Virus record (IMG/VR): IMGVR_UViG_3300037400_005412
DNA from: an uncultured virus (IMG/VR IMGVR_UViG_3300037400_005412)
Taxonomy: Duplodnaviria; Heunggongvirae; Uroviricota; Caudoviricetes
Direction: 5' to 3' (one strand)
Length of the DNA: 20,000 nucleotides
Below the pieces are notes generated by a model. That model did not search any database. It had not been told where the DNA came from and saw only the letters and a program-made list of their open reading frames with translations. Made by a program: the position numbers and the translations under genes. Positions within the stretch are counted from its first letter, which is position 1, and each line of letters begins with the position of its first letter. This document shows, piece by piece, positions 2,487 through 18,259 of the stretch.

Positions 2487-2547
2487 ATTCTACCAAAAAA
2501 AATTTTAAATGTCAAATCTTGACAATATAAAAAAAATTTGGTAAAAT
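2487..2547. promoter_or_regulatory. Back-to-back divergent sigmaA-type promoters
   Basis: + strand: TTGACA (2519-2524), 17 bp, TG-n-TAAAAT (2542-2547). - strand: TTGACA (2515-2510), 17 bp, TG-n-TAGAAT (2492-2487). Confidence 0.8.
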
Positions 2548-2582
2548 ATATTTAGAAAATTTATTAAGGAGATTATAAAAAT

Positions 2583-2837
2583 ATGCAACTTATTAATGAA
2601 AATACAAGTAGAAAAATTGATAGTTTAGGGCGTATTAGTATTCCAAAAGGTATGCGCGATAGGATGGGGATGCCGCAGGACACTGAATTAAATTTTTATA
2701 CTTTGATTACTGATAAAGGAGAATAGATGATTTGTTTGGCGCCGACCACTTTTAGAAGAGATAGATTTTATGTAGCGGCTGAAGTGCTTGATGAACTTGG
2801 ATTAGATTTGCCAAAGGAGTTAAGAGCAAAGTTATAA
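2583..2837 (+). CDS. AbrB/MazE/SpoVT-family DNA-binding protein, 84 aa, one in-frame TAG
   Basis: AAGGAG RBS; MQLINENTSRKIDSLGRISIPKGMRDRMG matches the AbrB RKxDxLGRxxIPKxxR signature. TAG at 2724, TAA at 2835. Absent from the ORF track. Confidence 0.85.
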
Positions 2838-2842
2838 TAATT

Positions 2843-3190
2843 ATGATTTATACTAGTTATTTCGGTAATAAAAGTAATTTTCCAGAGGATGCCTATGTAA
2901 TTGGCATTACTAGATTTGCTCCTATTGGAATATAGGAAAATTGGGATGTGCTTGCGCCTAGTTCTGAATTATTAATGTAGTTTAAAAATAAAGAAATTGA
3001 TGAATTTATATTTAAAGTAAAATTTTTAGAGTAGTTAAAATAGGTTGACAAGAATTATATCATTGAATTGCTAAAGCTGGCTGAAAGCCATTGGGATAAT
3101 GTAATTCTATGTTGCTATGAAAAGAAAGGCGATTTTTGTCATCGACATATTGTAGCCGAATGGTTAGATATTGGAATAGAAGAACTATAA
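2843..3190 (+). CDS. DUF488-family protein, 115 aa, four in-frame TAG
   Basis: MIYTSYF...LAPSSELL...LCCYEKKGDFCHRHIVAEWL family motifs lie in one frame across TAGs at 2933, 2978, 3032 and 3041; TAA at 3188. Confidence 0.85.
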
Positions 3191-3360
3191 TGGTTCTTCT
3201 ATTTTTTTGTAATTGGAAATATCGTAATTAGAAATTGAAAATTCATTTCGGAATTTTTTAGGTCATACTATATATATATTATAATAAATAAAAAAAATAA
3301 TCCGAAAACATACGCCCCTTGCCCGCGGTTCGCGCGCACAAAAAAATTTTTTTTCTTTGT

Positions 3361-3377
3361 GGGGGGGGGGGGGGGGG
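3361..3377 (+). repeat. Poly-G homopolymer (17 G) at the boundary of the two regions
   Basis: Directly visible. Confidence 0.9.
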
Positions 3378-3454
3378 CACAGGTGCCGGCGATAAATATA
3401 TAAAAAAACCAGACTTAAAGTATAAAAAAATAAAATTATTTTTCTAGCTCAGAA

Positions 3455-4150
3455 AATACCTACTAAGTCTATAGTCCGTGATTTCAAAAGTGCGCTAAAC
3501 GTTTGTTCTTTCTACCCGATAAAAATATACCTCGAAAAATATCTACTAAGTCTGTAGTCCAATTTAAAAAACTTCCATCAATCAAATCATTATGTTACCC
3601 CGTCAAATAATCCTTCTTTATGCTTCAGCGCATCCTTTTCCATCGGCCTCAGCCGAACTTCACTTTAATACACTAAAGCGCAAAAGTGCGACGAAAATGT
3701 GTTCGCTGCTTTCGCGCGCGCAACGTCCCGAAACCCTGTTCGCTTCTTTGGGGAGGGGAGGGTAGGCCCACACTTTAGCACGTTAAAGCGTTATAGTAAG
3801 CGAGCACCTTTGTTAAAATTTTAACAAACTTTAGCGCATTAAAGCATTAAAGTGTTCCAAATGCGTGTTTGGCGCACTTTAACACGTTAAAGCGTTACAG
3901 TAAGCGAACACCTTTGTTAAAAATTTAACAAACTTTAACACACTAAATCATTAAGGTGGACGAGCTCCTTTGTTAAAAATTTAACAAACTTTAGCGCACT
4001 AAACCATCAAAGAGTTTGTCAAACTTGTGTTTGCTTCTTTTGGTTACAAAATAATGACAAAAAATTTTTTAAAAAAACACTTGACAAACCAGGAGTCAAG
4101 TGTTATAATAGAAGTGGCACCTATTAAAAGGTAACAAAATAATGACAAAA
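3455..4150. promoter_or_regulatory. Non-coding island 1 of operator-like repeats (Rex-like, CTTTA-N6-TAAAG, SOS-like, OmpR-type boxes)
   Basis: TTGTTAA-N4-TTAACAA at 3810, 3914, 3970. CTTTA-N6-TAAAG-type at 3663, 3773, 3829, 3877, 3933, 3989. GAAA/AAAC-N4-GTTC at 3497, 3693, 3730. GTWACA-N5-ATGACA at 4043, 4131. Confidence 0.75.
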
Positions 4151-4249
4151 AATTTCTAAAAAAAGTAGTTGACAAATAGCGCGTCCGGTGCTATAATACA
4201 ATCAGAAAGAGGGAAGGAAAACCCAACAAACCGGAAAGGAATTAGAAAA

Positions 4250-4405
4250 ATGAAGAATTGGAAAGTCTGGATGCTGGTTGCTGAAAATGGTGAAGTCCTC
4301 GCCCGCGGGCGCAAGCGTGATGTGATGCGGATCGCTTCTACTCGGTATGTTTATCAGCACATCTTTTCTGACAGCCTTTACCAGACTAGCGAGCCCCTCA
4401 ACTGA
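4250..4405 (+). CDS. Hypothetical early protein, 51 aa
   Basis: Promoter at 4169, AAAGGA RBS, ATG 4250, TGA inside the terminator hairpin. Confidence 0.8.
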   Translation: MKNWKVWMLVAENGEVLARGRKRDVMRIASTRYVYQHIFSDSLYQTSEPLN

Positions 4406-4416
4406 GGGGCTTTTTT
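4392..4416 (+). terminator. Intrinsic terminator
   Basis: AGCCCCTCA-ac-TGAGGGGCT followed by a T-run. Confidence 0.8.
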
Positions 4417-4462
4417 CATCCCCGCAGGTAAGCGAGCACCTTTGTTAAAAATTTAACAAACA

Positions 4463-4507
4463 TGGGCGACCTTTCCCTCCACTCCCGGGTGGACAACCTC
4501 CTGTTGT
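4463..4507 (-). ncRNA. Candidate antisense-strand small RNA with GGA-loop hairpins
   Basis: - strand promoter TTGACA (4542-4537), 17 bp, TATAGT (4519-4514). Transcript reads ACAAC-AGGAG-GTTGT, CCAC-CCGGGA-GTGG, AGGGAAAGG; no convincing ORF. Confidence 0.5.
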
Positions 4508-4666
4508 GGTTATACTATACCATACAGCCCGCTTTTTGTCAAGCAAAAAAATACACAAATTAGATAAAGCCTTTTTGTATAACATTACCTATTGACATTT
4601 CTCTTGTCCGGTGTTACAATACAATCAGAAAGAGAGAAGAACCCCTAATGTAAAGGAGAAAATAAA

Positions 4667-4867
4667 ATGAACCACATCATTTACACTGACCGATATTTTG
4701 AAAAAAATCTACAGCGTGTAGAAGTTACCTGCCGGAGCAAAGTCTACAAAACATACTATGCGCACAATCCCAGCGGTTTGAAACAGTACGCCCGCGTCTG
4801 GAATAATAGACTCGGCAAGATGATAGACATACGCCTTGACACTGATCTTGTGAAAGTTATTGATTGA
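4667..4867 (+). CDS. Hypothetical early protein, 66 aa
   Basis: Own promoter, AAAGGAG RBS, TGA stop. Confidence 0.8.
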   Translation: MNHIIYTDRYFEKNLQRVEVTCRSKVYKTYYAHNPSGLKQYARVWNNRLGKMIDIRLDTDLVKVID

Positions 4868-5015
4868 ATAGCGCGAACCAGCTAAAACCGGACGGCATAA
4901 ACCAGAAAAAACATCCGGGCTTAGCGCGAAAACCGTAGCTTTTTGATAAAAAAGAATTGACAAACAATCGGACGTGTGGTATAATACTCTTAGAAAGAGA
5001 CAGGAGGGCAACCCC

Positions 5016-5177
5016 ATGAAATACTACAATGATGCCGATTTCTGCAGGCCCAGCACTGCAGGCGCGAAACTCTTAAAGGTGGAGCGCAACAAGCTCAACC
5101 CATTGCCAGGCTTGACATTCGTATCAATCGGCTACTGGAAACTCGCAAGCGGCGAAGTGATTGGCATTGTATTCTAA
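5016..5177 (+). CDS. Hypothetical early protein, 53 aa
   Basis: Promoter near 4957, AGGAGG RBS, ATG 5016. Confidence 0.75.
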   Translation: MKYYNDADFCRPSTAGAKLLKVERNKLNPLPGLTFVSIGYWKLASGEVIGIVF

Positions 5178-5451
5178 AAGCTGACAGCCTTTTCTAATAC
5201 GCAATTCACCGCGCTTCCCGCGAAGGGCCCGAAGCGCAGGTTACAATATAGTGACAATTTTTTACGACAAATTACAGCTTTTTCAACCAGATTGCCGCAT
5301 CCCGAAAGTGTAACAGATTAATGACAGAACAGTACCAAAAGAAAAACATAATTTTTTTTGAAAAAATGCTTGACATTTACCCGGGCTTGTGGTATTATAA
5401 TACCAGAAAGAGGGAAGGAAAACCCAATAAACCAGAAAGGAAAGAAAGACA

Positions 5452-5565
5452 ATGATGCAGTATGGTTACTATGAAGCACACGAGGCAGAGTGGGAAGCTT
5501 GGAACGAGTACGTTGAATGGTTGAACTTTGAGGCCGACATGGCAACGAATCCCTACGATGAATAA
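5452..5565 (+). CDS. Acidic aromatic-rich peptide, 37 aa (paralog family A)
   Basis: MMQYGYYEAHEAEWEAWNEYVEWLNFEADMATNPYDE; promoter 5370, RBS, stop in hairpin. Paralogs at 8289 and 14189. Confidence 0.85.
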   Translation: MMQYGYYEAHEAEWEAWNEYVEWLNFEADMATNPYDE

Positions 5566-5655
5566 TCGTAGGGATTCCAAAAAAAACTATTGACAAACCG
5601 GACAGAGTATGCTATAATAAATCCAGAAGTTAAGAAAGAAAGGAAGTAAAAAAAA

Positions 5656-5841
5656 ATGAAAGACTTTAACATTAAAATCACTATTATTTCTGCGCTTATT
5701 ATTCTCAGCCTTTTGACTCTTGGAATTATCGCTTGCCTCACTTGCGATGCGCCGACTTGGGAAAAGGTCGCTGGAATAATTCTCCCGGTTGTCCCTGTTG
5801 GCCTTGAAAGCTTTCTGTTTTATACATACATCTGGGATTAA
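5656..5841 (+). CDS. Small membrane protein, 61 aa, two hydrophobic segments
   Basis: Own promoter, AAGGAAGT RBS, hydrophobic stretches, downstream hairpin plus T-run. Confidence 0.8.
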   Translation: MKDFNIKITIISALIILSLLTLGIIACLTCDAPTWEKVAGIILPVVPVGLESFLFYTYIWD

Positions 5842-5915
5842 GGACTTAAAAAAGTCCTTTTTCTTTTTTTATTTTAGGGCTTGACAAATCGCCCGGGCAA
5901 TGCTATAATGTAATC

Positions 5916-5959
5916 ACAGGTTGAGGGAAACCGCACTCGGGCAGGAGAGGGGAGAGACT
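5916..5959 (+). ncRNA. Candidate small RNA, GAGGGA-loop family, copy 1
   Basis: Promoter 5881-5909; GGTT-GAGGGA-AACC hairpin; no ORF before the next promoter. Confidence 0.6.
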
Positions 5960-6070
5960 ATCCAAAAGGTAACAAAAGAAAAACAAAAAATTTCTAAAAA
6001 TAACTCTTGACATTCGTCCGGACTTGTGGTATTATAATACCAGAAAGAGAAAAGAAAGGAAGTAAAAAAA

Positions 6071-6406
6071 ATGAAAAAGACAATAAAGTATGTGGTAGTA
6101 AGACTTACTGTTCCCGAGGATGTCAAGAATTATCATGGCTATTACATTCATACTTATGCTTATAAATCTGGAAATCATGATTCTGTCGTTGAGTATTGCC
6201 ACAAGGTAAAAAGCCAAAAGGGTTATAAAAATGGCACAAGCTATAAATGGTATGTAATGACTGAACATCAGGCACTTGAAGAATCTATCAGGCTTCACAA
6301 ATGGCAGGAAGAAAAATTAAACAAGGATTTAGAAAGGCGCTTTCCCATTCGTTATTGTGAACAAACCGCAAGAGAAGAACTTGCCGAAATGATGAGTGCA
6401 AGATAA
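6071..6406 (+). CDS. Hypothetical early protein, 111 aa
   Basis: Promoter 6007, RBS, TAA followed by a bidirectional terminator. Confidence 0.85.
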   Translation: MKKTIKYVVVRLTVPEDVKNYHGYYIHTYAYKSGNHDSVVEYCHKVKSQKGYKNGTSYKWYVMTEHQALEESIRLHKWQEEKLNKDLERRFPIRYCEQTAREELAEMMSAR

Positions 6407-6434
6407 AAAAGGTTGAGCAATCAACCTTTTTTTT
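6406..6434. terminator. Bidirectional intrinsic terminator
   Basis: AAAAAGGTTGA-gcaa-TCAACCTTTTT with flanking A and T runs. Confidence 0.8.
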
Positions 6435-6473
6435 AATGCAAAGAACCGAACACTCTCGCAGGCGGTCCGAAAA

Positions 6474-6502
6474 ATTATACCATACCAGTAGCAAAAAGTC
6501 AA
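6474..6502 (-). promoter_or_regulatory. Antisense promoter driving a short ORF-less transcript toward the 6406-6434 terminator
   Basis: TTGACT (6502-6497), 17 bp, TG-n-TATAAT (6479-6474). Confidence 0.65.
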
Positions 6503-6621
6503 GAAGAAATTTCGCACAAAATAGCATAAAACTGAACGTCCCGATTTGTGCACTTTGACTATTGACACCGGGCTATTTATTTGCTATAATGAAGCCACAA
6601 AAGGAAAAGGAGATAAAGAAA

Positions 6622-6930
6622 ATGATCAACATTAGAAGCATCCTAAAACTGGCTGAAAATGACGGCCTGACTCTTAAAGCTGGTAAGCCCATCACTTACA
6701 AGAGTGGTTGGCAGGTTGCCACCGAGGGCGTAGAGTGCCACACCGCAAGAGAAGCGATCAATGCGGTTAAGGCTTACAGCGGGAACTGTGGCGTGTGGTT
6801 TGCTGGCGGTATCTACTACATTGACAAAAGCCACCGCGTGAACACTAAACGCGAAGCACTGGAAATTGGCAAGACACACAATCAGATTTCTGTGTTGGGC
6901 TGGCGTAAAATGGCTTTAGCGTATTGCTAA
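6622..6930 (+). CDS. Hypothetical early protein, 102 aa
   Basis: AAGGAG RBS, ATG 6622 (the ORF-track start 6562 is the TTG of the -35 element). Confidence 0.85.
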   Translation: MINIRSILKLAENDGLTLKAGKPITYKSGWQVATEGVECHTAREAINAVKAYSGNCGVWFAGGIYYIDKSHRVNTKREALEIGKTHNQISVLGWRKMALAYC

Positions 6931-7033
6931 AGCCATTAAAATTTTTTTTGAAAAATTGAAAAAAATGCTTGACATTTTGCCCGGCTTGATATAATATACA
7001 ATCAGAAAGAGAAAAGAAAAGGAGATAATTAAA

Positions 7034-7225
7034 ATGTACATGATTCTTACTGCTGATACCGAAGAGACCATTGCTTCCACCAGATTTGAGGATGTAGCTA
7101 AAGTAATTGCTGATTCACTGCCTATCAAATGCGTTGTTCGGTATGCTGACATGGGCACTACAGTCTATTACAAAGCACCCGGTGCTAACTTCTTCTCTGC
7201 TAACGAAAAGCAGGAAGTGGCCTAA
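7034..7225 (+). CDS. Hypothetical protein, 63 aa (paralog of 19491-19673)
   Basis: Promoter and AAGGAG RBS; shares TIA..xFEDVA..IA..LP..CVVRY.D with the 19491 gene. Confidence 0.85.
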   Translation: MYMILTADTEETIASTRFEDVAKVIADSLPIKCVVRYADMGTTVYYKAPGANFFSANEKQEVA

Positions 7226-7521
7226 AAAGCCACTTCTTTTTTTTTTTTTTTTTTTTTTGGTATTGACATTTGCGTGCGCATGTGCTATAATAGAATTGGT
7301 GCGTTTCTTTCGTCCAGGGGCTGTGGCGCAGGTTACAATATAGTGACAAATTTTTGCGAGATGTTACAAGAAATTACCCGGACTTGCGGCGTCCTAAAAC
7401 TGGTTACAAAATAATTACAAATCAGTGACAAAAAGTTTTTTTAATTTTTTTGAAAAAATGCTTGACAAATGCGCCCGGCTGTGGTATATTATAATCACAA
7501 AAGGAAAGGAGATAAAAAGAA

Positions 7522-7743
7522 ATGAAAAAGATGTTTACTTATGACGTGGGTGGTTGGTTGTTCTGGGATACCGAGGCTTTCGGGAATGGCTGGAAAGCCG
7601 CAAAGGAAAAGGCCACCGCTCTCCACAGCGCGATCTATCGCACGGTCTATAATGGAGAGACTGAGCGCCGAGAGGTTTACTTTAAGGCTGGATGTTTCAA
7701 TGATGTTAAGTATGCCACCCCTGACAGCGTGATGATTTTCTAA
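7522..7743 (+). CDS. Hypothetical protein, 73 aa (paralog of 15781-15999)
   Basis: Promoter 7462 and RBS; shares EAFG..WK.A..KAT.LH..IYR.V...EV...GCF..V.YA.P..V.IF with the 15781 gene. Confidence 0.88.
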   Translation: MKKMFTYDVGGWLFWDTEAFGNGWKAAKEKATALHSAIYRTVYNGETERREVYFKAGCFNDVKYATPDSVMIF

Positions 7744-7844
7744 GGGATTAAAAAAATCCCTTAGAAAATTTAAAAAATGCTTGACAAACCGGTCAACTTG
7801 TGATATTATAATACCAGAAAGAGAAAGAAAGGAAGTAAAAAAAA

Positions 7845-8033
7845 ATGACTTACACAATTAGCAAGAATTTCAATGGAACTTACTCCATCCACCTTGGCGC
7901 CGACCTCTTTTACTCTTGGATTGATGAAGCGCCCACCTATGAAAAGGCAATAGAACTTGCGAGAACATACGCCGGAGAAAACGGCACAGTCCTCTATAAA
8001 GAAGACCTTTTCAAATCCGCCATTGAAATCTAA
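7845..8033 (+). CDS. Hypothetical early protein, 62 aa
   Basis: Promoter, RBS, terminator AAAAGAGAGCC-gcaa-GGCTCTTTT. Confidence 0.82.
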   Translation: MTYTISKNFNGTYSIHLGADLFYSWIDEAPTYEKAIELARTYAGENGTVLYKEDLFKSAIEI

Positions 8034-8105
8034 AAAGAGAGCCGCAAGGCTCTTTTTTTATAAAAAGTGCTTGACAAAACGCCCGGGCTATGATACAATA
8101 CAATC

Positions 8106-8153
8106 ACAGGCGGAGGGACGCCCCACGCGGGAAGTCGAGGGGAGAGACTGACT
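8106..8153 (+). ncRNA. Candidate small RNA, GAGGGA-loop family, copy 2
   Basis: Promoter 8071; GGCG-GAGGGA-CGCC hairpin; no ORF. Confidence 0.6.
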
Positions 8154-8288
8154 TAATAGTTACAAAATGGTAACAAAAAAGTTTTTTCAAAAAAATCAAA
8201 AAAAAGCTTGACAAAATGCCCGGGCTGTGCTATACTACAATCAGAAAGAGGGAAGGAAAACCCCAATAAACCAGAAAGGATGAATAAA

Positions 8289-8396
8289 ATGGAGTTTTAC
8301 AGTATGGAGCAGTTCGAGATCATGGGCGACCTGATGGAAGAATATCAGGAGTGGCTGGACTTTGAAGAGGACATGAAGTCCAATCCTTGGGGCTAA
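8289..8396 (+). CDS. Acidic peptide, 35 aa (paralog family A)
   Basis: MEFYSMEQFEIMGDLMEEYQEWLDFEEDMKSNPWG; promoter 8208, RBS, stop in hairpin loop. Confidence 0.8.
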   Translation: MEFYSMEQFEIMGDLMEEYQEWLDFEEDMKSNPWG

Positions 8397-8490
8397 AAAA
8401 GCCCCAAGGAAATTAAAAAAGTGCTTGACAAGTAAAACAAAGTATGATATAATAAAGGCATAAAAGGAAAAGAAAAGGAGAATTAAAAAA

Positions 8491-8775
8491 ATGAGTTACT
8501 TTATGGGAAATGGCCGCGCCGATACTTGCCGCCACAGCGATGAAGCCTACAAGGGCAAGGCGGTTGAAATGATGATTGACGTGCTGGAAGCCCGTGATGG
8601 TTTTGAACTTCGCAAGGCAAGCGACAGCACCGGCTCGGCGGCAAAGTTCCGCATTTTCTGGGATGGCGAGTGCATCAGCACCGTCTACAATGAAAAGGAA
8701 GCGCGGGCGCTGTTCAATGACTTTGCCCCAGCCCCCAAGCGCAAGGCTGGACGCCCCAAGAAGAATGCCGCATAA
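8491..8775 (+). CDS. Hypothetical early protein, 94 aa, basic C-terminal tail (KRKAGRPKK, AT-hook-like)
   Basis: Promoter, AAGGAG RBS, downstream terminator. Confidence 0.82.
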   Translation: MSYFMGNGRADTCRHSDEAYKGKAVEMMIDVLEARDGFELRKASDSTGSAAKFRIFWDGECISTVYNEKEARALFNDFAPAPKRKAGRPKKNAA

Positions 8776-9033
8776 GTTCCAAAAGAGAAAGAGTTAAAAA
8801 ACTCTTTCTCTTTTCTTTTGTGGGACGTGCGCCGCCCGGGTAAGCGAATCCTTTTAGCTGGAGTTAGCGCCGACTTACCCGACAGGCCCCGAGCTTTAAC
8901 ACAGTAAAGTGGTGAAGAATTTTGAGGCGATTTGCTTGTTAAAAACTTAACGATATTTTTTCCGAAAAAGGGCTTGACAAATGCCTCCGGGTGTGGTATA
9001 GTATAATCACAAAAGGAAAGGAGATAAAGAAAA

Positions 9034-9192
9034 ATGAAACGTGAACAGTATTACAAGAACAAGAGAACAGGCGAGCACACCGAAAGCCATAAACAAGCCA
9101 TGGAATGGTATCGGGCAAAGGATGAGATCGAAGTCTGGTATTATTCCGAAGTGTGCGGCGAATGGCTGTGCGGGGTTGAGTGGGTTTGGTAA
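9034..9192 (+). CDS. Hypothetical Trp-rich protein, 52 aa
   Basis: MKREQYYKNKRTGEHTESHKQAMEWYRAKDEIEVWYYSEVCGEWLCGVEWVW; promoter, RBS, stop in hairpin. Confidence 0.8.
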   Translation: MKREQYYKNKRTGEHTESHKQAMEWYRAKDEIEVWYYSEVCGEWLCGVEWVW

Positions 9193-9257
9193 AAATCCAC
9201 TCAACTTTTTTTGAAAAAGGGCTTGACAAATCGCCCGGGCTGTGATACTATACAATC

Positions 9258-9300
9258 ACAGGCGGAGGGACGCCCCACGCGGGGAGCCGAGGGGGGAGAG
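9258..9300 (+). ncRNA. Candidate small RNA, GAGGGA-loop family, copy 3
   Basis: Promoter 9223; GGCG-GAGGGA-CGCC hairpin; no ORF. Confidence 0.6.
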
Positions 9301-9409
9301 CGCGCTAAAAGTTACAAAAGAATGACAAAAAATTTTTTTGAAAAGTGCTTGACAAGTCCGGACATGTATGCTATAATGTAGTCACAAAAGAGAAAAGGAG
9401 ATAAAAAAA

Positions 9410-9586
9410 ATGACTTACGAAGAAATGTACGATCTGCTGGCCGATGTTCTCGGAATTGATGAAAATGCCCTTGATCTGGCTTTTGCCATTGGCGGATGTA
9501 ACGAAGAAACCGCCGAAAGAATTTTGTTCTACTACACTGGCTGGCATTCCTTTGAGGGCTGGCTGGGCGAACAGGAAGAGGACTGA
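9410..9586 (+). CDS. Highly acidic small protein, 58 aa
   Basis: MTYEEMYDLLADVLGIDENALDLAFAIGGCNEETAERILFYYTGWHSFEGWLGEQEED; promoter 9349, AAGGAG RBS. Confidence 0.85.
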   Translation: MTYEEMYDLLADVLGIDENALDLAFAIGGCNEETAERILFYYTGWHSFEGWLGEQEED

Positions 9587-9688
9587 AAGAGTCCTCTTTT
9601 GCCCGGGCAAAAGTTACAAAAGAAAGACATTGACAAATAAAATAAAGTATGGTATTATAATACCAGAAAGAACAAAGGAGATAAAAAA

Positions 9689-9880
9689 ATGAAAAACTAT
9701 AATAACATGAGCTGTGCTGAACTGCGGCGGCAACTGAACCAGATCGACAATGACCTGCGGAACTTCCCCACTATGAGCCAAATTGAAAAAAACCGCCTGA
9801 CCTATGAGCGGATGAAAGTCAACGGCATTCTGCGCCACAAGATCACAGAAATCCTTGATGAATGTGATGAAAAGGCTTGA
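9689..9880 (+). CDS. Hypothetical helical/coiled-coil protein, 63 aa
   Basis: Promoter 9630, RBS; the TGA stop lies inside the next TTGACA. Confidence 0.82.
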   Translation: MKNYNNMSCAELRRQLNQIDNDLRNFPTMSQIEKNRLTYERMKVNGILRHKITEILDECDEKA

Positions 9881-9937
9881 CAAATAAAACAAAGTATGCT
9901 ATAATAAAGGTACAAAAAAGAAAAGGAGAATAAAAAA

Positions 9938-10075
9938 ATGAAAAAGTTTGAAACCAAAATCACTCGTGATAATGCCGATGTAAAGTGCATTGTTGAAGCC
10001 ATTGATAAAGAACATGCAGCCCGCCGCTTCTTTGAGATTCTTGGAGAGCATGGCCTGAAAATCAAGGAACTGTAA
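9938..10075 (+). CDS. Hypothetical protein, 45 aa
   Basis: MKKFETKITRDNADVKCIVEAIDKEHAARRFFEILGEHGLKIKEL; promoter, RBS, stop hairpin plus T-run. Confidence 0.8.
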   Translation: MKKFETKITRDNADVKCIVEAIDKEHAARRFFEILGEHGLKIKEL

Positions 10076-10222
10076 AAAGTTCCTTGATTTTTTTATGCCA
10101 AAAATACTTTAAAAATTTTAAGTAAAAACCGCAAAAAATCTCTTGACAAATCGCCCGGTTTATGGTATTATAATACCAGAAAGAGGGAAGGAAAACCCCA
10201 CAAACCAGAAAGGAAAAGAAAA

Positions 10223-10414
10223 ATGTTTTATTGTTATGTTGGTGGTTATGATTGTTCTGCTGAGGTTATCCGCGAAGAAGGTTGGAAGTGTGAAGCGGTT
10301 TTCGCAACTTTGCAAGAAGCATTTGATTATTGTGAAGAACATGCTTGCTATGATGATACTGGTTGGATAGAACATAATGGAGATATTCGCCAATTCTTTG
10401 ATTGGGAACTATAA
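10223..10414 (+). CDS. Acidic Cys-containing small protein, 63 aa
   Basis: Promoter 10143, leader hairpin, RBS, downstream terminator. Confidence 0.82.
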   Translation: MFYCYVGGYDCSAEVIREEGWKCEAVFATLQEAFDYCEEHACYDDTGWIEHNGDIRQFFDWEL

Positions 10415-10500
10415 TCAAGAGCCAAAAAGACTCTTGATTTTTTTTAAAAAAAATTGAAAAAATGCTTGACAAATCGCCCGGGCAGTGCTATAATGTAATC

Positions 10501-10548
10501 ACAGGTTGAGGGAAACCGCACTCGGGCAGAAGAGGGGGAGGACTGACT
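10501..10548 (+). ncRNA. Candidate small RNA, GAGGGA-loop family, copy 4
   Basis: Promoter 10466; GGTT-GAGGGA-AACC hairpin; near-identical to copy 1. Confidence 0.6.
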
Positions 10549-10653
10549 TTAAGTTACAAAACAGTAACAAATAGTTCCAAAAGAAAATTGTTGACATAAT
10601 ACAGTTGACATGCTATAATAATACCAGAAGTTAAGAAAGAGAGGAAAAAAGAA

Positions 10654-10734
10654 ATGTATCAAACTGCTATTGCCGCCGTCCTTGTTATTGTCTTTGTTGT
10701 AGCTATTGCCGCAATTTATTTGAATAATTTATAA
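10654..10734 (+). CDS. Single-TM micropeptide, 26 aa
   Basis: MYQTAIAAVLVIVFVVAIAAIYLNNL; promoter 10591, GAGG RBS. Confidence 0.7.
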   Translation: MYQTAIAAVLVIVFVVAIAAIYLNNL

Positions 10735-10823
10735 AAAAGACTTGACAAGCCCGGATACTTGTGTTATACTACAATCAGAAAGCGGGAAGGAAAACCTGCA
10801 CAAACCAGAAAGGAAAAAAGAAA

Positions 10824-11144
10824 ATGCCGCCCATTGATATTAATAATCTTAGCTATCATGTCCGTATGGATAGAAAAGAAAGACTGGTACAAATTAAATC
10901 TATTGGAATTGGCGCCCCGATTGCTAATAAAGAAGAAACCAAAGATGGTCGAAAAGTTATGAAAACTCTCACTTCTACTGGAATAATGGTGATTAGAGCA
11001 GTAGAAAGTAACATGATTATTACCATGTATCTTGCTGATTTCGATCAAGCAGAAAAAATGTTTAGAAAACAGTATGGATTGAAACTTCCAAAAGACATCG
11101 GAAATAAAATTAAATTAAATAACATCATGTTCCCCGCTAATTAA
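10824..11144 (+). CDS. Hypothetical basic protein, 106 aa
   Basis: Promoter 10742, leader hairpin, AAAGGA RBS, ATG 10824. Confidence 0.82.
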   Translation: MPPIDINNLSYHVRMDRKERLVQIKSIGIGAPIANKEETKDGRKVMKTLTSTGIMVIRAVESNMIITMYLADFDQAEKMFRKQYGLKLPKDIGNKIKLNNIMFPAN

Positions 11145-11215
11145 TGCGGGGACTTGATTTTTATAAAAAAAAATAGTATAATAATTATAGAAAAATAAAT
11201 AAAGGAGGTTTTAAG

Positions 11216-11332
11216 ATGTCTTTAGAGCTTGCCCGGGCATTGCTTGTGATTGCAAAATATTGCGCTTCTTGTGATGATTGTAGCGCTTGCCCACTTCATG
11301 ACATTTGCGGAAAAATTCCACTTGAATGGTAA
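11216..11332 (+). CDS. Cys-rich micropeptide, 38 aa (CxxCxxCxxCP...C)
   Basis: MSLELARALLVIAKYCASCDDCSACPLHDICGKIPLEW; AAGGAGGT RBS. Confidence 0.78.
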   Translation: MSLELARALLVIAKYCASCDDCSACPLHDICGKIPLEW

Positions 11333-11527
11333 TTAACGCAAAGAGCCGACATTCCCAAGGTCGGTTCGCACTTTCACACGCTAAAGGGCTGAAGAATTTT
11401 CGGCGGGCAAGGCAAGGCAAAAATAATTTATATTTTTTTCCTAAAACCTATTGACATTTTAGAACCTATGTGCTATACTATAATTGTTCCAAGAGAGAAT
11501 AACAAAATAAAAAAGGAGAATAAAACT

Positions 11528-11710
11528 ATGTACAATGTGCGCTTTACTGACACTATTCACGGTGAGACTGAGGAAAACTTTGACAGCTATGATGCAGCCA
11601 TGGAGTACTGGAATGACTATGCTGATACTGAGTCTTGTGTGGCTGGGGTTATGATGGATTTGGATAATTGCGAAATTATCTGGAACTTTGACGATCGAGA
11701 GGTCGAATAA
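11528..11710 (+). CDS. Highly acidic small protein, 60 aa
   Basis: Promoter 11451, AAGGAG RBS, ATG 11528. Confidence 0.85.
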   Translation: MYNVRFTDTIHGETEENFDSYDAAMEYWNDYADTESCVAGVMMDLDNCEIIWNFDDREVE

Positions 11711-11787
11711 AAAAATATAAAAAGGGGCTTGACAAACAAGCCCCTTTGTGCTATTATAATACCAGAAAAGGAAAGGGGAATAAAAAA

Positions 11788-11967
11788 ATGACTACTTACA
11801 GAGAAAACCTGCTTGACCGCATGATCCACATTTACGGGATGGAAGCTCCAATCGTAATTCAGTTTGCCGGAATGTGTGAAAGATATGAGAATAACGCTTT
11901 TAATGATGACATTTTGCGGCTGTTGGTGGAAGCTCACGAAGCTGACCCAGTTTTTGAGGAAGATTAA
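11788..11967 (+). CDS. Acidic small protein, 59 aa
   Basis: Promoter 11729, RBS, stop in hairpin. Confidence 0.82.
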   Translation: MTTYRENLLDRMIHIYGMEAPIVIQFAGMCERYENNAFNDDILRLLVEAHEADPVFEED

Positions 11968-12073
11968 AAATCTTCCTCAAATGCCCGGGCGGAAAAGTTA
12001 CAAAAGAAAGACATTGACAAATAAATCATGATGTGTTATAATAAAGGCGCAAAAAGAAAAGGAGAACAAAACA

Positions 12074-12511
12074 ATGAATAAAGTTTTTAAGAAAATAGAC
12101 GCATGGACTGAGCCTGTACGCGATTGGTGGTTTTGGAATTGGGAAGTTGCTGTAACAATAATTTTTGTAGTGGCTATCCTTATTGCGGTTGCTGTGTTTG
12201 GTCTATGGGCTTCTAGTGCTTTCTATGAAGAAGTAGAAAATTATGACTTCACCGCACAAGTGTATGATAAAGACCATTATACTACTCATTCAGTAAGTTA
12301 TATTACTTCTGGTAAATCTCGCATCCCTGTCTACCATACCCATCACCATTACAAAATAATGTGGGAAGATGTGGGAGAACGTGGGGCGCTTGAAATCGGT
12401 GAAGATCATTATAATTTAATTAAAATAGGTGATTTTGTAAATATTCATTGTTCTGTGAGAGCAGATAAGCAAGGGGAATTACATTATTATTATAGTTTCA
12501 AGGGATATTAA
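12074..12511 (+). CDS. Membrane-anchored protein, 145 aa (one TM helix followed by a soluble beta-rich domain)
   Basis: Promoter 12014, RBS, hydrophobic VAVTIIFVVAILIAVAVFGLWA segment. Confidence 0.85.
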   Translation: MNKVFKKIDAWTEPVRDWWFWNWEVAVTIIFVVAILIAVAVFGLWASSAFYEEVENYDFTAQVYDKDHYTTHSVSYITSGKSRIPVYHTHHHYKIMWEDVGERGALEIGEDHYNLIKIGDFVNIHCSVRADKQGELHYYYSFKGY

Positions 12512-12575
12512 AATCCCTTGAAATTTTTTTCAAAAAGGGCTTGACAAATCGCCCGGGCTATGGTATATTATAGTC

Positions 12576-12624
12576 ACAGGCGGAGGGACGCCACACTCGG
12601 GTAGTAGAGGGGGAGGCTTTTTTT
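12576..12624 (+). ncRNA. Candidate small RNA, GAGGGA-loop family, copy 5
   Basis: Promoter 12541; GGCG-GAGGGA-CGCC hairpin; ends in a T-run. Confidence 0.6.
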
Positions 12625-12760
12625 ATTTGGAGAATGTGTGGGAGGTTGCCCGGGCGGCGGCAAAAGAAAAACAAAAAGTTACAAAAGAAAAACATTGACA
12701 AGTAACCAGAAGTATGGTATATTATAATCACAAAAGGAAAAGAAAAGGAGATCAAAAAAA

Positions 12761-13039
12761 ATGTCTGGATTTTATGAACTTAAATGTGTTGATACTCTTG
12801 GTTTTTCTGTCTACTATTACTTTTATAGCCCTCGCGCTATCCGCAATCCAAAAGGCGCTTTGAAATCTGGTTATGCCCCTGATAAAGTGCGGCTTTTGGT
12901 AGAAGACCGAGAAGACACCCCTTGCGGGATTCGCTTTATGCACAATCCTTTTGAATACATCTATTTGAAGTATTTCAAAAAAACTGGGACTTTCAAGTTT
13001 AGCGGTTATCGTCTTGATTGGGAAAAAGAGGAATTTTAA
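12761..13039 (+). CDS. Hypothetical early protein, 92 aa
   Basis: Promoter 12695, AAGGAG RBS, stop hairpin. Confidence 0.85.
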   Translation: MSGFYELKCVDTLGFSVYYYFYSPRAIRNPKGALKSGYAPDKVRLLVEDREDTPCGIRFMHNPFEYIYLKYFKKTGTFKFSGYRLDWEKEEF

Positions 13040-13131
13040 AAAAAATTCCTCTTTTTAAAAAAAAGGCTTGACAAATACATCCGGATGTGATATATTATAA
13101 TTACAAAAGGAAAAGAAAAGGAGAATAAAAA

Positions 13132-13320
13132 ATGTTTATTGTTATTCTTAAAATTATCGCTGTTATTGCTGTCATTCGTTTCGTTGGTGGTGTGATCGAA
13201 ATAGTGATGAAAAATTTGTTTCTTGAAATTGAGTCAAGACGTTATGACAACGACCCTCAGCGCAAACAGAAGATCGAAGAAATGCGAAAAAGAATTGAAG
13301 AAAATTCAAAAAGGGCTTGA
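13132..13320 (+). CDS. Small membrane protein, 62 aa
   Basis: N-terminal hydrophobic helix and charged tail; TGA overlaps the next -35. Confidence 0.82.
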   Translation: MFIVILKIIAVIAVIRFVGGVIEIVMKNLFLEIESRRYDNDPQRKQKIEEMRKRIEENSKRA

Positions 13321-13375
13321 CAAAATAGCCCCTTTATGATACAATACCAATAGAAACAGAAAAGGAGAAATAAAA

Positions 13376-13495
13376 ATGATGTATGACATTTATCCCTGTG
13401 ATCTCGATCCCTTTGGCGAATGCCCGAAGCGGTGTCAGGACTGTGCCCATTGTGTGGGCTGGTTCATGGATGAACCAGAGGACGAAGAAAATTAA
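13376..13495 (+). CDS. Cys-rich acidic micropeptide, 39 aa
   Basis: MMYDIYPCDLDPFGECPKRCQDCAHCVGWFMDEPEDEEN; promoter 13317, AAGGAG RBS. Confidence 0.78.
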   Translation: MMYDIYPCDLDPFGECPKRCQDCAHCVGWFMDEPEDEEN

Positions 13496-13538
13496 AAAAG
13501 GTCTTGACAGGACGCAAATCCTGTGATATAATAAAGAT

Positions 13539-13810
13539 ACAAAAGGGGAAGGAAAACCCCACAAACCTCTGAGCTGGCCCAGCGAAATGGTACAGAGTGA
13601 GCATGAACACTTTGTCAAAAAATGCCGTGAACTGTGAATGAGAAATAGCAGGTGAGGTTAAGGTCTTACAGCACACCGCCGACCAAGACGCGAAAGGGCG
13701 GGAGTGGGAGAGCAAACTCCCAAACAGAACACAAAACCGTGAGAGCGAGAGAGACACGAAATAACCGCTCAGGATGGCAACCTTAAACCCCCGCTGTGAG
13801 TGGGGTTTTA
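13539..13810 (+). ncRNA. Candidate ~270-nt structured non-coding RNA, family not recognised
   Basis: Promoter 13504-13532 and terminator ~13785-13810; no RBS-led ORF; several local and long-range complementary segments. Confidence 0.6.
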
Positions 13811-13884
13811 AATAACCAAAAAAAGGTCTTGACAGGATGTAAATCCTGTGCTATAATAAAGACACAATAAAGGAGATAAAAACA

Positions 13885-13965
13885 ATGAAAGCACGACCGC
13901 CGCCCACAAGGGCATGTGATTGGATTACTAGTAATTAGATGGTAATGTATAGGAGAATAGACTAA
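13885..13965 (+). CDS. Micropeptide MKARPPPTRACDWITSN(*/Q)MVMYRRID: 17 aa in code 11 or 26 aa in code 15
   Basis: Promoter 13829, AAGGAG RBS, ATG 13885, in-frame TAG at 13936, TAA at 13963 overlapping the next ATG. Confidence 0.55.
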
Positions 13966-14188
13966 TGAATAGAATCAGAGACGAGACGTAAAACCTGATA
14001 ATGATAGTATAATGATGGAATAGAATGATAGTAATAAAATAGAATAAAGGCAAATGTCAAGAGGCGGCTCGGTTGGAGGTTGGGAGTAGCCGAAAAAATT
14101 TTTCAAAGAAATTTGAAAAACCCTCTTGACAAATCGCCCGAGCTGTGGTAATATATAATCACAAAGAGAAAACAAGGAGGAAAACAAA

Positions 14189-14299
14189 ATGACTAATGAC
14201 TACTGGGAAGCACACGAAGCCGAATGGCTCGCCGCTCAGGAGTGTATGGAATGGCTCCTGTTTGAGGCCGACATGGCCACAGACCCCTACCGGAATTAA
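14189..14299 (+). CDS. Acidic aromatic-rich peptide, 36 aa (paralog family A)
   Basis: MTNDYWEAHEAEWLAAQECMEWLLFEADMATDPYRN; AAGGAGG RBS; stop in hairpin. Confidence 0.85.
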   Translation: MTNDYWEAHEAEWLAAQECMEWLLFEADMATDPYRN

Positions 14300-14388
14300 A
14301 ATCCGGTAGGGAAAAATAAAAAAAGTAGTTGACAAATCCAAAAGTATATGATATAATTAAGACACAAAGAGAAAAGGAGATAAAAAAA

Positions 14389-14721
14389 ATGCTTAATAGT
14401 ACTCGTAAAGTTCTTGAACAGGTTGCCGCCGACTGGATGGGCAAAGACCGCGACTGGGAGACTTGGGAACATATGTTCGATTCTCGTGGACACAATATGT
14501 TTGGGACTGTTTATGCTATATCCTATTCTACTTTCCGTAAATATTCGACTTTAGAAAAAGTTGAAACCTTTGTTCCTGTGACTGTTGAAGAACTTGTCGA
14601 TCTGCTTAATGACTGCGCTGGGAATGACCTCTATGGGGCTTCTTGGGAGTATGTCATGCGGGACGGCTTGCCGTATGAACGGGTAATCACCTATCGGCTT
14701 GTAAAAATTAATTTCGATTAA
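14389..14721 (+). CDS. Hypothetical early protein, 110 aa
   Basis: Promoter 14329, AAGGAG RBS, ATG 14389. Confidence 0.85.
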   Translation: MLNSTRKVLEQVAADWMGKDRDWETWEHMFDSRGHNMFGTVYAISYSTFRKYSTLEKVETFVPVTVEELVDLLNDCAGNDLYGASWEYVMRDGLPYERVITYRLVKINFD

Positions 14722-14793
14722 AAGCAAAAGGGGCTTGACAAACCCAAGCCCCTATGGTATAATACAATCAGAAACAACAAGGAGGATAAAAAA

Positions 14794-14934
14794 ATGTACG
14801 AATACACAATCCGTTATTTGGAAAATGGTGAAGAAGATTACCTTTATGGATACAGCGAACGCGATCTGATTAAGCGCTATCCTGAAATCCCCCGCAGTAT
14901 GTATGTGATTGTAAGCCGCGAGTATATAGACTAA
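14794..14934 (+). CDS. Tyr-rich small protein, 46 aa
   Basis: MYEYTIRYLENGEEDYLYGYSERDLIKRYPEIPRSMYVIVSREYID; AAGGAGG RBS; terminator follows. Confidence 0.8.
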   Translation: MYEYTIRYLENGEEDYLYGYSERDLIKRYPEIPRSMYVIVSREYID

Positions 14935-14964
14935 ACCCCACCACAAGTAGGGTTTATTTTTTTT

Positions 14965-15093
14965 TGCATAAATACGCGCGCACTATGAATGAATATTCAT
15001 TCATTATAAATAAATAATTATGCATTCGGCGCACCGTCTTCCAGCCGCCGCGCAGCGTGTTTCTATTATACCACATGCCGGCAATTTTGTCAA
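14965..15093. promoter_or_regulatory. ARG-box-like palindromes plus an antisense promoter
   Basis: TGAAT-N4-ATTCA and TAAAT-N4-ATGCA at ~14986-15025; - strand TTGACA (15093-15088), 17 bp, TATAAT (15070-15065). Confidence 0.6.
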
Positions 15094-15252
15094 GCATTTT
15101 TTATTCATCAAAGTGCACAAATTTTTTTCCTGAAATGAATAATAAATAATTACCCAGGAGGGATGAATAAAAAATTTTTTTCAAAAAAGTATTGACAAAT
15201 GCCCGGTCATTTGCTATAATCAATATAGAAATTAAGAGAGGGGAACAAAAAA

Positions 15253-15687
15253 ATGTACACTATCACTTATACCAATATCATTACCTGTAAGACCAATGGC
15301 GATACCATCCAGCAGACCGTTAACTTTTATCATACTGGTAAGATCGAACGCCACGACAGCCGCCCTTGGTATGAGGAAAGCGACATTGAAGAAATTGCTG
15401 GAAGCGTTAAGTCCAGCGGCTTCAGCCTTGCTGACGGTCGCACGAATTGCGGCGAGACTCTGGAGGAGAAGTGGAGCGACTTCCGCGCCCGCACTGCTTC
15501 CCGTGTGTTCATTTATGTGACCGCTGAAAATATTGGGTACTATATGGACATTGATGAGTTTGAAAGTTTTGTGAAAACTTGGTGCTATATTTCCCGCGAA
15601 TCCGCAAAAAATGGCGGACGTTCCAAGGTCAGATGTAAGCATGAAAGCCAGAAAATGCGTAACTGGCTGGCACATAGAGCGGCTTAA
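15253..15687 (+). CDS. Hypothetical early protein, 144 aa
   Basis: Promoter 15192, GAGGGG RBS, stop hairpin. Confidence 0.85.
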   Translation: MYTITYTNIITCKTNGDTIQQTVNFYHTGKIERHDSRPWYEESDIEEIAGSVKSSGFSLADGRTNCGETLEEKWSDFRARTASRVFIYVTAENIGYYMDIDEFESFVKTWCYISRESAKNGGRSKVRCKHESQKMRNWLAHRAA

Positions 15688-15780
15688 AAAAAGTCGCTCT
15701 AAAATGAAAAAAAGTATTGATAAGCTCGGTTATATTTGTTATAATGAATCCAGAAAGAGATAAGAAAGGAAGTAAAAAAA

Positions 15781-15999
15781 ATGAAAAAGTTCGTTTATCA
15801 GGTAGCAGGTTTTGAGTATATCGGTTATGAGGCTTTCGGCGCTGCGTGGAAGCAGGCCAGAGCCAAGGCAACTGAACTCCACGTAGGTATTTATCGTCTG
15901 GTTATCAAGGGCGATATCATCAAGCAGGAAGTGCTGGTAAATGGCGGGTGCTTCCTCACCGTGGAGTATGCCAAGCCCGAGCAGGTGCTCATCTTTTAA
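15781..15999 (+). CDS. Hypothetical protein, 72 aa (paralog of 7522-7743)
   Basis: Promoter, RBS, clear paralogy. Confidence 0.88.
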   Translation: MKKFVYQVAGFEYIGYEAFGAAWKQARAKATELHVGIYRLVIKGDIIKQEVLVNGGCFLTVEYAKPEQVLIF

Positions 16000-16034
16000 G
16001 GGACTTGAATAAAGTCCCATTTTTTTTGACCATT

Positions 16035-16610
16035 TATACAATGAATATTCATTCATTTTGAATGAAACTTTATGCATTTGGCGCGTCCTCTTCCATCGGC
16101 CGCAGCCGTATTTCACTTTCACACGCTAAAGCGATAAATCGTTAGCGATTTAGCGCGCTAAAGTGGTCCAAAAATATTTTCCTATAACTTTAACACGCTA
16201 AAGTGGTAGTGTGTTAAAGTGCGCCAAAAAAGTTTTTTCGCACTTTAACACACTAAAGTATTAAATAGTTACAATTTGGTAACAACCGATGACGACCGGT
16301 TTCACTTCACTACGCTAAAGCGCTAAATTGAGAAAGAATACAGGGAGTAATCACTTTAGCACGCTAAATCCTTAAACCTACTGGACTAATAGACTTTACC
16401 CCACTAAAGCGATGAAGTTTGTTAGTTAATTAACAAACGAAGTTCATAATTTATTTACAAAAATTTAACATTTATGAAGATTGTTAATTATTTATCAAGA
16501 GATTACAAAATAATTACAATTGTTCCCACTTTGTTTCTTTTACACGGACTTTTTGTGCATTTTGTACAAGAGGAATTGCTTTTTCATTCTTTTTTTTGTG
16601 CAACATTACC
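16035..16610. promoter_or_regulatory. Non-coding island 2 of operator-like repeats
   Basis: ARG-like boxes at 16042-16078. CTTTA-N6-TAAAG-type at 16116, 16148, 16188, 16243, 16305, 16354, 16394. WalR-like at 16268, 16502. Rex-like at 16419, 16481. Confidence 0.75.
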
Positions 16611-18256: not shown

Positions 18257-18259
18257 AAA

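Follow-up and report, generated by a model that had tools for sequence, protein, structure and literature searches.

A G-rich pseudoknot RNA family in multicopy early cassettes of TAG-recoded giant phages

A 20,000-nucleotide (nt) stretch of DNA from an uncultured virus of the class Caudoviricetes (IMG/VR record IMGVR_UViG_3300037400_005412), referred to at its full length as the window, contains a short G-rich element in five strong copies, each placed at the start site of a consensus promoter and none followed by a credible gene. Why does a phage transcribe such an element, and is it the RNA itself or a neighboring gene that is served? The comparisons described here give a firm answer about what the element is and a tentative one about what it does. 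The element is a real, previously uncatalogued structured RNA family, found in multicopy early cassettes of a clade of giant phages in which the stop codon TAG is recoded. Its RNA may serve as a decoy for a host factor, a proposal that is weighed below against its rivals.

Five promoter-led copies of a covarying pseudoknot

A search of the window with the pattern CACAGGNNGAGGGANNCCNCACNCGGG, in which up to three mismatches were allowed, returned exactly five matches, all on the + strand and all without a mismatch; by 200 shuffles, none was expected. The –10 hexamer of a TTGACA-N17-TAnnnT promoter ends 5 nt before each copy. The RNA should therefore start at about A2 of the element, in a numbering that begins with the C before the start site. 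No plausible open reading frame (ORF) led by a ribosome-binding site (RBS) was found after any of the five window copies, and no credible ORF lies over the units. A preliminary description of this locus had proposed five promoter-led copies with no such ORF behind them, and in both respects it is borne out: all five are exact and lie at the start site, with none expected by chance. Its count, which is correct for the strong copies, must be extended by a sixth, divergent copy that the covariance model finds on the minus strand (Table 1). The 5′ hairpin of this copy is a different one, with a CAAC/GTTG stem and AGGAG as its loop, and it is followed by CCACCCGGGAGTGGAGGGAAAGG, a possible 15-codon ORF, and a terminator. 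On its 3′ side lies an operator-like palindrome, TTGTTAAATTTTTAACAA (window 4440–4460, minus strand), which occurs in arrays of three in related phages (loci L367 and L368).

The window aligns at 64–91% identity, and in shuffled order, with the 110–135-kb region of G001, a viral contig of 239,565 bp, and with three further viral contigs that are shorter. A covariance model was built from 14 copies and then run on whole contigs. It recovers the five strong window copies at 58–69 bits and the sixth, seven copies in G001, six in the viral contig G004, and one each in G002 and G003; those of G001 all lie on one strand, between 115.5 and 124.9 kb. A metagenome scan with one pattern of 20 specified bases gave 119 loci. 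The pooled set comprises 81 distinct 42-mers, after one evident chance match was dropped, 127 distinct 70-mers, and 138 distinct contexts. Structure counts given below refer to the 81 distinct versions.

The 5′ part of the element is a hairpin of four base pairs (5–8/15–18), which starts 3 nt from the 5′ end of the RNA and closes a hexaloop G-A-(G/A)-G-G-A. Its stem is GGTT/AACC in 31 versions, GGCG/CGCC in 30, and GGCT/AGCC in 20, and the pairs 7–16 and 8–15 are formed in all 81. The window itself displays the first two types, in two and three copies, respectively. The compensatory change noted in the preliminary description is confirmed, and the third stem type extends it. Two further pairs covary downstream of the hairpin. 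Positions 19 and 28 form CG (34 versions), GC (29), AU (13) or GU (1), with 4 non-pairs; positions 23 and 32 form CG (39), UA (29) or GC (12), with a single non-pair. The invariant neighbors 20–27 and 22–33 lengthen both pairs, giving the 2-bp helices 19–20/27–28 and 22–23/32–33. Since these helices cross (19 < 23 < 28 < 32), the element consists of a hairpin with a small pseudoknot stacked on it.

The statistical evidence for this fold is strong. Across its eight pairs, 99.2% of 648 cells hold standard pairs. The covariation score is 0.538, compared with 0.160 ± 0.014 in shuffles, none of which (0/500) scored as high, and it is at most 0.081 in a control in which the partners were slid by one to three columns. 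Mutual information ranks the same four covarying pairs first, and the three variable helices occur in 21 different combinations. The element is thus a covarying, G-rich pseudoknot under selection for its fold. Covariation had been proposed at the outset as the test of the structure; it is passed more strongly than was claimed, with four covarying pairs, two of which had been overlooked.

Conservation extends to the unpaired positions, which are nearly all conserved purines: the loop, A21, G25–G26, A29–G30, and the tail. The loop reads GAGGGA in 64 versions, GAAGGA in 16, and GAGAGA in one. Hence its supposed invariance is true of the window, where GAGGGA is found in 5/5 copies, but is not a property of the family; the more general A-N-G-G-A form, with N alone varying, fits 80/81 versions, in accord with the original proposal of an ANGGA-type loop. 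Divergent members with unrelated stems still have loops that bear GGA. The middle of the element is invariant at A21, C22, G25–27, A29, and G30. Positions 33–41 are occupied by purines only in 81/81 versions, giving a tail of the form GAGGGGRRR, and the non-template strand is 47% G across the 42 nt.

Other pairings were considered and set aside. A third pair of helix 3 (24–31) is formed in just 4/15 versions and was dropped. Pairing of the tail with CC.CAC.C, as proposed by ViennaRNA, conflicts with the finding that position 23 covaries with 32, not with A34. The complementarity of the linker TCTGCC to GGCAGA, judged by eye, is present in some subtypes only.

The range of the family seems to be a narrow clade, at least as judged within 10 kb of the sigma-factor-like gene of these phages: the covariance model, run over 80 loci (1.39 Mb) around homologs of that gene (62–79% identity), found only the G002 copy already known. 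In a model search of 16 sources, three matches broke the search pattern; one has the GAGAGA loop, one lacks the 5′ hairpin arm, and one has a different 5′ half. Two loose viral scans (114 and 36 loci) gave real copies only in the same four contigs, G001–G004, and blastn of window 5001–13000 against 50,697 phage records gave no match. A loose pattern of 14 fixed bases hit at least 122 loci in bacterial genome contigs, none of which, among those checked, had the 5′ half, a result that does not establish absence from bacteria. The Rfam search called for in the preliminary description matched no family: in Rfam 15, copies 1 and 5 with their flanks gave at E ≤ 10 a best score of 16.6 bits, against thresholds of 40–55, and the whole window gave at E ≤ 1 one tRNA and three weak chance matches, all outside the elements. 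In the literature, as represented by titles and the openings of abstracts, nothing was found that describes this RNA or a phage-encoded CsrA-binding RNA.

An independent cassette in an early region

Several arrangements follow the element. In class a (93 of the 138 contexts) about 12 nt lead to GTWACAA, and only an A/U-rich GTWAC hairpin precedes the next promoter. Class b (17/138) has a U-run at once, then one to three further GGGAGG motifs, and would give an RNA of about 50 nt. Class c (19/138) carries one to three AGTTA-N8-TAACT hairpins, and the other nine contexts have none of these features. A possible terminator alternative is confined to class b and, at –5.7 to –10.1, is no better than the hairpin (–6.4 to –7.7). 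A Shine-Dalgarno (SD) sequence plus ATG ahead of the next promoter is seen in only 5/138 contexts. A conserved mini-ORF in the class-b extension was entertained and then rejected, as by eye the frames differ among copies.

Comparison with relatives separates the element from the genes near it. The ortholog of gene 9410–9586 in G004 has its own promoter right after the preceding gene, and the element is absent. In G003 the terminator of a convergent gene lies within about 100 nt of the copy, with no co-oriented gene downstream. The unit is therefore an independent cassette, not tied to a neighboring gene.

The promoters themselves are part of a dense array. Consensus promoters of the type TTGACA-N17-TAnnnT number 48 in the window (2487–19464), where 0.27 are expected; 44 are on the + strand and most have TG. 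Downstream of 39 of them, a crude rule finds an SD-like word with a start codon inside 70 nt; for the other nine it finds none. Four of the five units fall among these nine, and the fifth was scored with the majority solely through a TTG in its own U-run. A consensus promoter ends 4–6 nt upstream of the element in 132 of the 138 contexts. The spacers of these promoters vary widely, and homologous units elsewhere have unrelated spacers; in the window CCGG is present in 22/48 spacers and CCCGGG in 7/48, two of which lead ordinary genes. The suggestion that the CGCCCGGGC spacer marks a promoter type specific to the unit must accordingly be abandoned, since this spacer is generic to the early promoters of the phage and other spacers precede homologous units. 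It belongs to cassettes resembling the promoter-early stem-loop (PeSL) cassettes discussed below. What survives of the preliminary interpretation is a structured RNA with a promoter to drive it, no ORF, and a fold under selection.

Two short DNA words recur around the promoters. The palindrome GCCCGGGC occurs 13 times in the window (0.17 expected), often inside a promoter spacer, and may be an operator for shut-off of the early promoters or a PeSL-like stem. GTWACAAA occurs 12 times, always on the + strand (2.2 expected); most copies (nine by inspection) lie 17 or 38 nt upstream of a –35 hexamer, two helical turns apart. The word was considered as a part of the RNA and rejected: because it precedes promoters even where there is no element, it is part of the next promoter. 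It seems to be either a factor site or an upstream promoter element with helical phasing. Arrays of GTWACAAA are also present in locus L182 (1–120).

Table 1. Coordinates of the cassettes and associated features in the window
Feature	Position	Strand	Details
Promoter P1 of copy 1	5881..5909	+	TTGACA-17-TATAAT, TG-extended
Copy 1	5915..5956	+	42 nt; RNA start about 5916; stem GGTT/AACC, loop GAGGGA; 19–28 G-C, 23–32 U-A; tail GAGGGGAGAG; 69.3 bits
P2 after copy 1	6007..6035	+	50 nt past copy 1; leads gene 6071–6406
Promoter P1 of copy 2	8071..8099	+
Copy 2	8105..8146	+	RNA start about 8106; GGCG/CGCC; 19–28 C.A (sole mismatch among the five), 23–32 G-C; 63.2 bits
P2 after copy 2	8208..8236	+
Promoter P1 of copy 3	9223..9251	+
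Copy 3	9257..9298	+	RNA start about 9258; GGCG/CGCC; 19–28 C-G, 23–32 G-C; 58.2 bits
P2 after copy 3	9349..9377	+	leads gene 9410–9586
Promoter P1 of copy 4	10466..10494	+
Copy 4	10500..10541	+	RNA start about 10501; GGTT/AACC; 19–28 G-C, 23–32 U-A; tail GAGGGGGAGG; 68.6 bits
P2 after copy 4	10591..10619	+
Promoter P1 of copy 5	12541..12569	+
Copy 5	12575..12616	+	RNA start about 12576; GGCG/CGCC; 19–28 A-U, 23–32 U-A; tail GAGGGGGAGG; 67.1 bits
Class-b extension of copy 5	12617..12660	+	C and 7 T directly after the element, second GGGAGGTT purine motif, GCCCGGGC palindrome
P2 after copy 5	12695..12723	+
Divergent sixth copy	4470..4508	–	covariance model, 21.1 bits, E 3e-4
Promoter of sixth copy	4514..4542	–
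GTWACAAA	4043, 4131, 5969, 7403, 8159, 8170, 9311, 9613, 10553, 10564, 11997, 12678	+

The picture of the window is that of an early region, read by the host polymerase, in a giant (~240-kb) TAG-recoded phage. In G001, 83 consensus promoters of the + strand lie within 110–160 kb (19, 24, 19, 15, and 6 in successive 10-kb bins), with 0–2 per bin elsewhere. The same interval has a G+C content of 34–41%, as against about 29% in the rest of the contig, and contains 51 of the contig's 53 CCCGGG sites. TAG is read as a residue by G001 and the window phage alike. When G001 is translated with the standard code, 20 open frames reach 300 codons or more, and reading TAG through raises this number to 54, the longest having 3,128 codons; in the window, in-frame TAGs are found in genes 18–1256 (–, eight), 1374–2477 (–, two), and 2843–3190 (+, four). 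Gene 1374–2477 belongs to the phage sigma-factor family phrog_5767 (E 3e-49), and its cultured relatives (20 records) are all from Bacillota phages, including those of Enterococcus (7), Mammaliicoccus (4), Staphylococcus (4), Brevibacillus (2), and Geobacillus (2). By inference, the host probably belongs to the Bacillota of the rumen. No match to Pfam CsrA occurs in the related genome G001, a result that has no bearing on whether the host encodes the protein.

Other genes and RNAs of these phages may be mentioned briefly. Gene 2843–3190 encodes a DUF488 protein. The first gene of the rightward early region, 2583–2837 (+), encodes a small protein that resembles DNA-binding proteins of the AbrB/MazE type (SpoVT-AbrB fold) with a Pfam E value of 4.5e-5, just under the cut-off, and that is a candidate reader of the repeated DNA words. 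A tRNA-Leu gene (anticodon TAA; window 18906–19040, +) has its own consensus promoter 19 nt upstream. In G001, the related complete phage (L309 357–980; L307–L310; L310 4496–5995; L311 8490–9758) there are a ROOL RNA (292 bits), 36 tRNA matches, and an RNA ligase, and the same contig encodes a 499-residue protein of phrog_850, annotated 'RNA-binding protein' (Pfam DUF2828 plus DUF7788). RNA biology is unusually prominent in this group of phages.

Further consensus promoters lack an SD and ORF, at 7263–7440 (+), 13504 (+), 15093 (–), 18777 (+), and 4081 (+), and may give other small RNAs; the unit at 7263–7440, of about 150 nt, has a G+C-rich start and then several GTTACAA-like words. A second conserved leader, CAGAAAGAGGGAAGGAAAACCC(C), stands before the SD at promoters 4169, 5370, 8208, 10143, and 10742 (and at 13504). 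It forms a hairpin with a AAGGAAAA loop, the stem of which becomes GCGGG/CCTGC at 10742. Messages under CsrA control are laid out in this way, with one GGA in a loop and another in the SD. In sister clades, loci L334, L335, L336, L342, and L345 (sigma-like gene 62–72% identical) have a consensus promoter that leads directly into a G+C-rich hairpin and a U-run, with no ORF. These mini-units would give an RNA of about 35 nt and may be functional analogues of the G-rich unit.

What the RNA may do

In the reading favored here, each unit would be a self-contained early cassette, in which a consensus sigma-A/sigma-70-like promoter drives a small non-coding RNA that begins with the 42-nt pseudoknot. 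From five to seven strong promoters the phage would make this RNA in large amounts right after infection. The RNA would then act in trans as a decoy, by means of GGA or SD-like purine motifs in its loop and single-stranded tail. The host factor captured might be a CsrA-type translational repressor or the anti-SD end of 30S subunits; capture of either would shift translation control toward early phage messages. That the RNA itself is the product, and that it offers GGA or SD-like motifs, is suggested by the multicopy maximal promoters, the lack of an ORF, the independence from genes, the near-5′ hairpin, the displayed purine motifs, the additional GGGAGG repeats of class b, and the retention of GGA in loops whose stems are unrelated. 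The predicted energy of the tail with a generic anti-SD is –8.3 to –11.2 kcal/mol, as compared with an average of –8.1 over the window's 36 real RBSs, and CsrA prefers the A-N-G-G-A form in loops.

An abundant early decoy RNA with GGA or SD-like motifs is the leading guess, but it is still a guess, made on anatomical arguments. Its more specific forms must be held more loosely. It is doubtful that TAG-recoded Bacillota phages flood the cell early with a 42-nt pseudoknot RNA that captures a host post-transcriptional regulator through both the A-N-G-G-A loop and the purine tail, and the version that names CsrA as the target seems about equally doubtful.

Several observations weigh against a decoy. 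Each RNA has 2–5 GGA motifs (in the loop, in the purine tail, and 1–3 more in class b), and known CsrA sponges carry more. One version has the loop GAGAGA and so no GGA there. GAGGGG is not the optimal SD here either, the genes of this phage using AAAGGAG. The invariant middle and the pseudoknot are not needed for binding of either CsrA or 30S subunits; indeed the invariant pseudoknot core is accounted for by no reading proposed here, rivals included. In 112 of the 138 contexts a full promoter lies 40–79 nt downstream of the element with no strong terminator between, so that read-through leaders are as likely as discrete small RNAs. Nested-fold energies are no better than those of shuffles (z = 0.02, –1.74, –1.74, –0.58, –0.26, and –0.47), although nested-fold programs miss the structure because its two short helices cross. 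Finally, most of the "invariant" positions of the metagenome set were imposed by the 20-position search pattern, and the only set free of this bias is that of the 20 strong covariance-model copies from whole contigs.

The main rival is a 5′ stabilizer acting in cis, which is a real possibility though on balance an unlikely one. The near-5′ structure and the SD-like purine run would shield the RNA that follows from decay that depends on the 5′ end, which in Bacillota would be decay by RNase J1 or RNase Y; transcripts from P1 would pass P2 and provide a long-lived version of the next message. The position of the element suits this role, at the start site with a hairpin 3 nt from the 5′ end, as does an all-purine tail that equals real RBSs in anti-SD complementarity and has no start codon after it. 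So does class a, in which 93 of the 138 contexts have no strong terminator before P2. The relatives of the sigma factor in phages of Enterococcus, Staphylococcus, Mammaliicoccus, Brevibacillus, and Geobacillus also agree with it, as SP82 and SPO1 are, we assume, members of the same broad group. It is harder to see why a stabilizer would be separated from the gene, in 112/138 contexts, by a complete promoter with its own upstream element, or be followed at once by a U-run in 17/138. The ortholog of gene 9410–9586 does without the element in G004, and the G003 copy has no co-oriented downstream gene to stabilize. Moreover, a generic stabilizer requires neither a covarying pseudoknot nor a near-invariant sequence.

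It has also been considered that the nascent structure binds the transcribing polymerase and modifies it in cis, in the manner of put RNA, allowing read-through of terminators with no protein factor. The location would be apt: the element is promoter-proximal, at +1, its structure is under selection, and the units occupy the first ~10 kb of a ~45-kb co-oriented, terminator-rich early region (G001 115.5–124.9 kb; window 5.9–12.6 kb). Nearly every downstream gene has its own consensus promoter, however, and terminator read-through is therefore not needed. Seven copies within 10 kb, one copy that faces a convergent gene, and an architecture of one 4-bp hairpin plus two crossing 2-bp helices in 42 nt, rather than two stem-loops in ~70 nt, likewise make this explanation improbable.

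A start of replication primed by transcription is less probable again. Here the G-rich RNA would remain on its C-rich template as an R-loop, beside an A/T-rich stretch, and prime DNA synthesis; the folded strand could be either the displaced G-rich DNA or the RNA. Besides the 47% G of the non-template strand and the A/T-rich DNA that follows, there is the position of the units, immediately right of the strand-switch point and the cumulative GC skew minimum of G001, at about 100–115 kb. The switch in gene orientation explains that minimum equally well, and no origin-type repeats are tied to the element, GTWACAAA belonging to the next promoter. Watson-Crick covariation in four pairs, two of them crossing, favors a defined fold over a hybrid.

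The four unpaired GG doublets (12–13, 25–26, 35–36, and 37–38) could, held in place by short helices, form a small aptamer-like core, or a G-quadruplex, to which a phage protein or a small molecule such as a host immune signal would bind. The doublets are invariant in all versions, including copies found only with the covariance model, and the compact pseudoknot is about the size of small riboswitch aptamers, but part of that invariance was imposed by the search pattern. With its G-quadruplex option, ViennaRNA gave best folds free of a quadruplex for all five copies. There is no Rfam aptamer match, and neither an expression platform nor a regulated ORF follows the element, with no ORF before the next promoter in 133/138 contexts. 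Such a role is very unlikely. The idea that the unit has no RNA function and is a variant of mobile PeSL-like promoter cassettes, conserved through recent spread, draws on the 48 consensus promoters in 20 kb, the AT-rich upstream regions, the GC-rich palindromes in the spacers, the shuffled order of modules among relatives, and the many joints at promoters in metagenome contigs, but is scarcely credible, as recent spread cannot yield 21 combinations of compensating pairs at 99.2% pairing and the element lies downstream of the start site, not inside the promoter. The probability that these readings leave over belongs to something not thought of.

Small proteins are the usual explanation of phage takeover. 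In this giant stop-codon-recoded phage a non-coding RNA would appear among the main early products, and its binding partner, once known, would reveal a phage weapon of a new kind or a new device for RNA stability.

Relation to known systems

The put RNA of phage HK022, which acts on the transcribing polymerase, consists of two adjacent stem-loops in about 70 nt. It shares with the element a promoter-proximal, structured RNA in a terminator-containing phage early region. The resemblance in anatomy ends there, for the element is present in many copies, is built as a hairpin plus pseudoknot, and precedes genes that have their own promoters. The element does not match a riboswitch either, since no expression platform controls a downstream ORF.

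The PeSL cassettes of T4-type phages (Arbiol et al. 2010, PMC2839356) offer a close parallel to the promoters, and to the promoters only. As in the account of PeSLs in the parts of that paper used here, sigma-70-like early promoters are dense, with AT-rich upstream sequences and GC-rich palindromes, in a plastic region of small ORFans that is subject to shuffling. The PeSL stem-loops, however, are described there as lying in or around the promoter and acting as terminators, whereas the element is transcribed from +1 as a covarying pseudoknot, and it is not followed by an SD and ORF.

Stabilizers known from Bacillus provide a second parallel. [quoted passage not shown] The element has both a start-less, SD-like purine run near the 5′ end and 5′ structure. 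Set against the review's description, it also resembles the SP82 case in being early RNA of a phage that would use the host polymerase first and its own sigma factor later. Unlike the STAB-SD and SP82 stabilizers as described in those sections, it is usually separated from any ORF by a full promoter, resides in a gene-independent cassette, and forms a covarying pseudoknot.

Staphylococcus phage K, in the portion of the report consulted (PMC9241854), produces, from early terminal repeats, small non-coding RNAs whose role is unknown, as defined by RNA-seq. It too is a Bacillota phage with a sigma-factor cascade and small non-coding early RNAs; those of the window are predicted from sequence, and no sequence or structural likeness to the phage K RNAs, so far as that portion describes them, has been shown.

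The decoy reading finds its counterpart in the sponge RNAs of the CsrB/RsmZ type, which sequester CsrA or RsmA. The features in common are the absence of an ORF, expression from a dedicated promoter, A-N-G-G-A in a hairpin loop, and GGA within single-stranded purines, and the multiple gene copies of the phage element could provide a high dose. In contrast to CsrB and RsmZ, the element has just 2–5 GGA motifs and a conserved pseudoknot core that CsrA binding would not require, and it is encoded by a phage whose host is probably a member of the Bacillota. In that phylum CsrA is known to be antagonized by the FliW protein. If the decoy reading is true and the captured factor is CsrA, the element would be the first case in Bacillota of an RNA that antagonizes CsrA, and also the first such RNA encoded by a phage.

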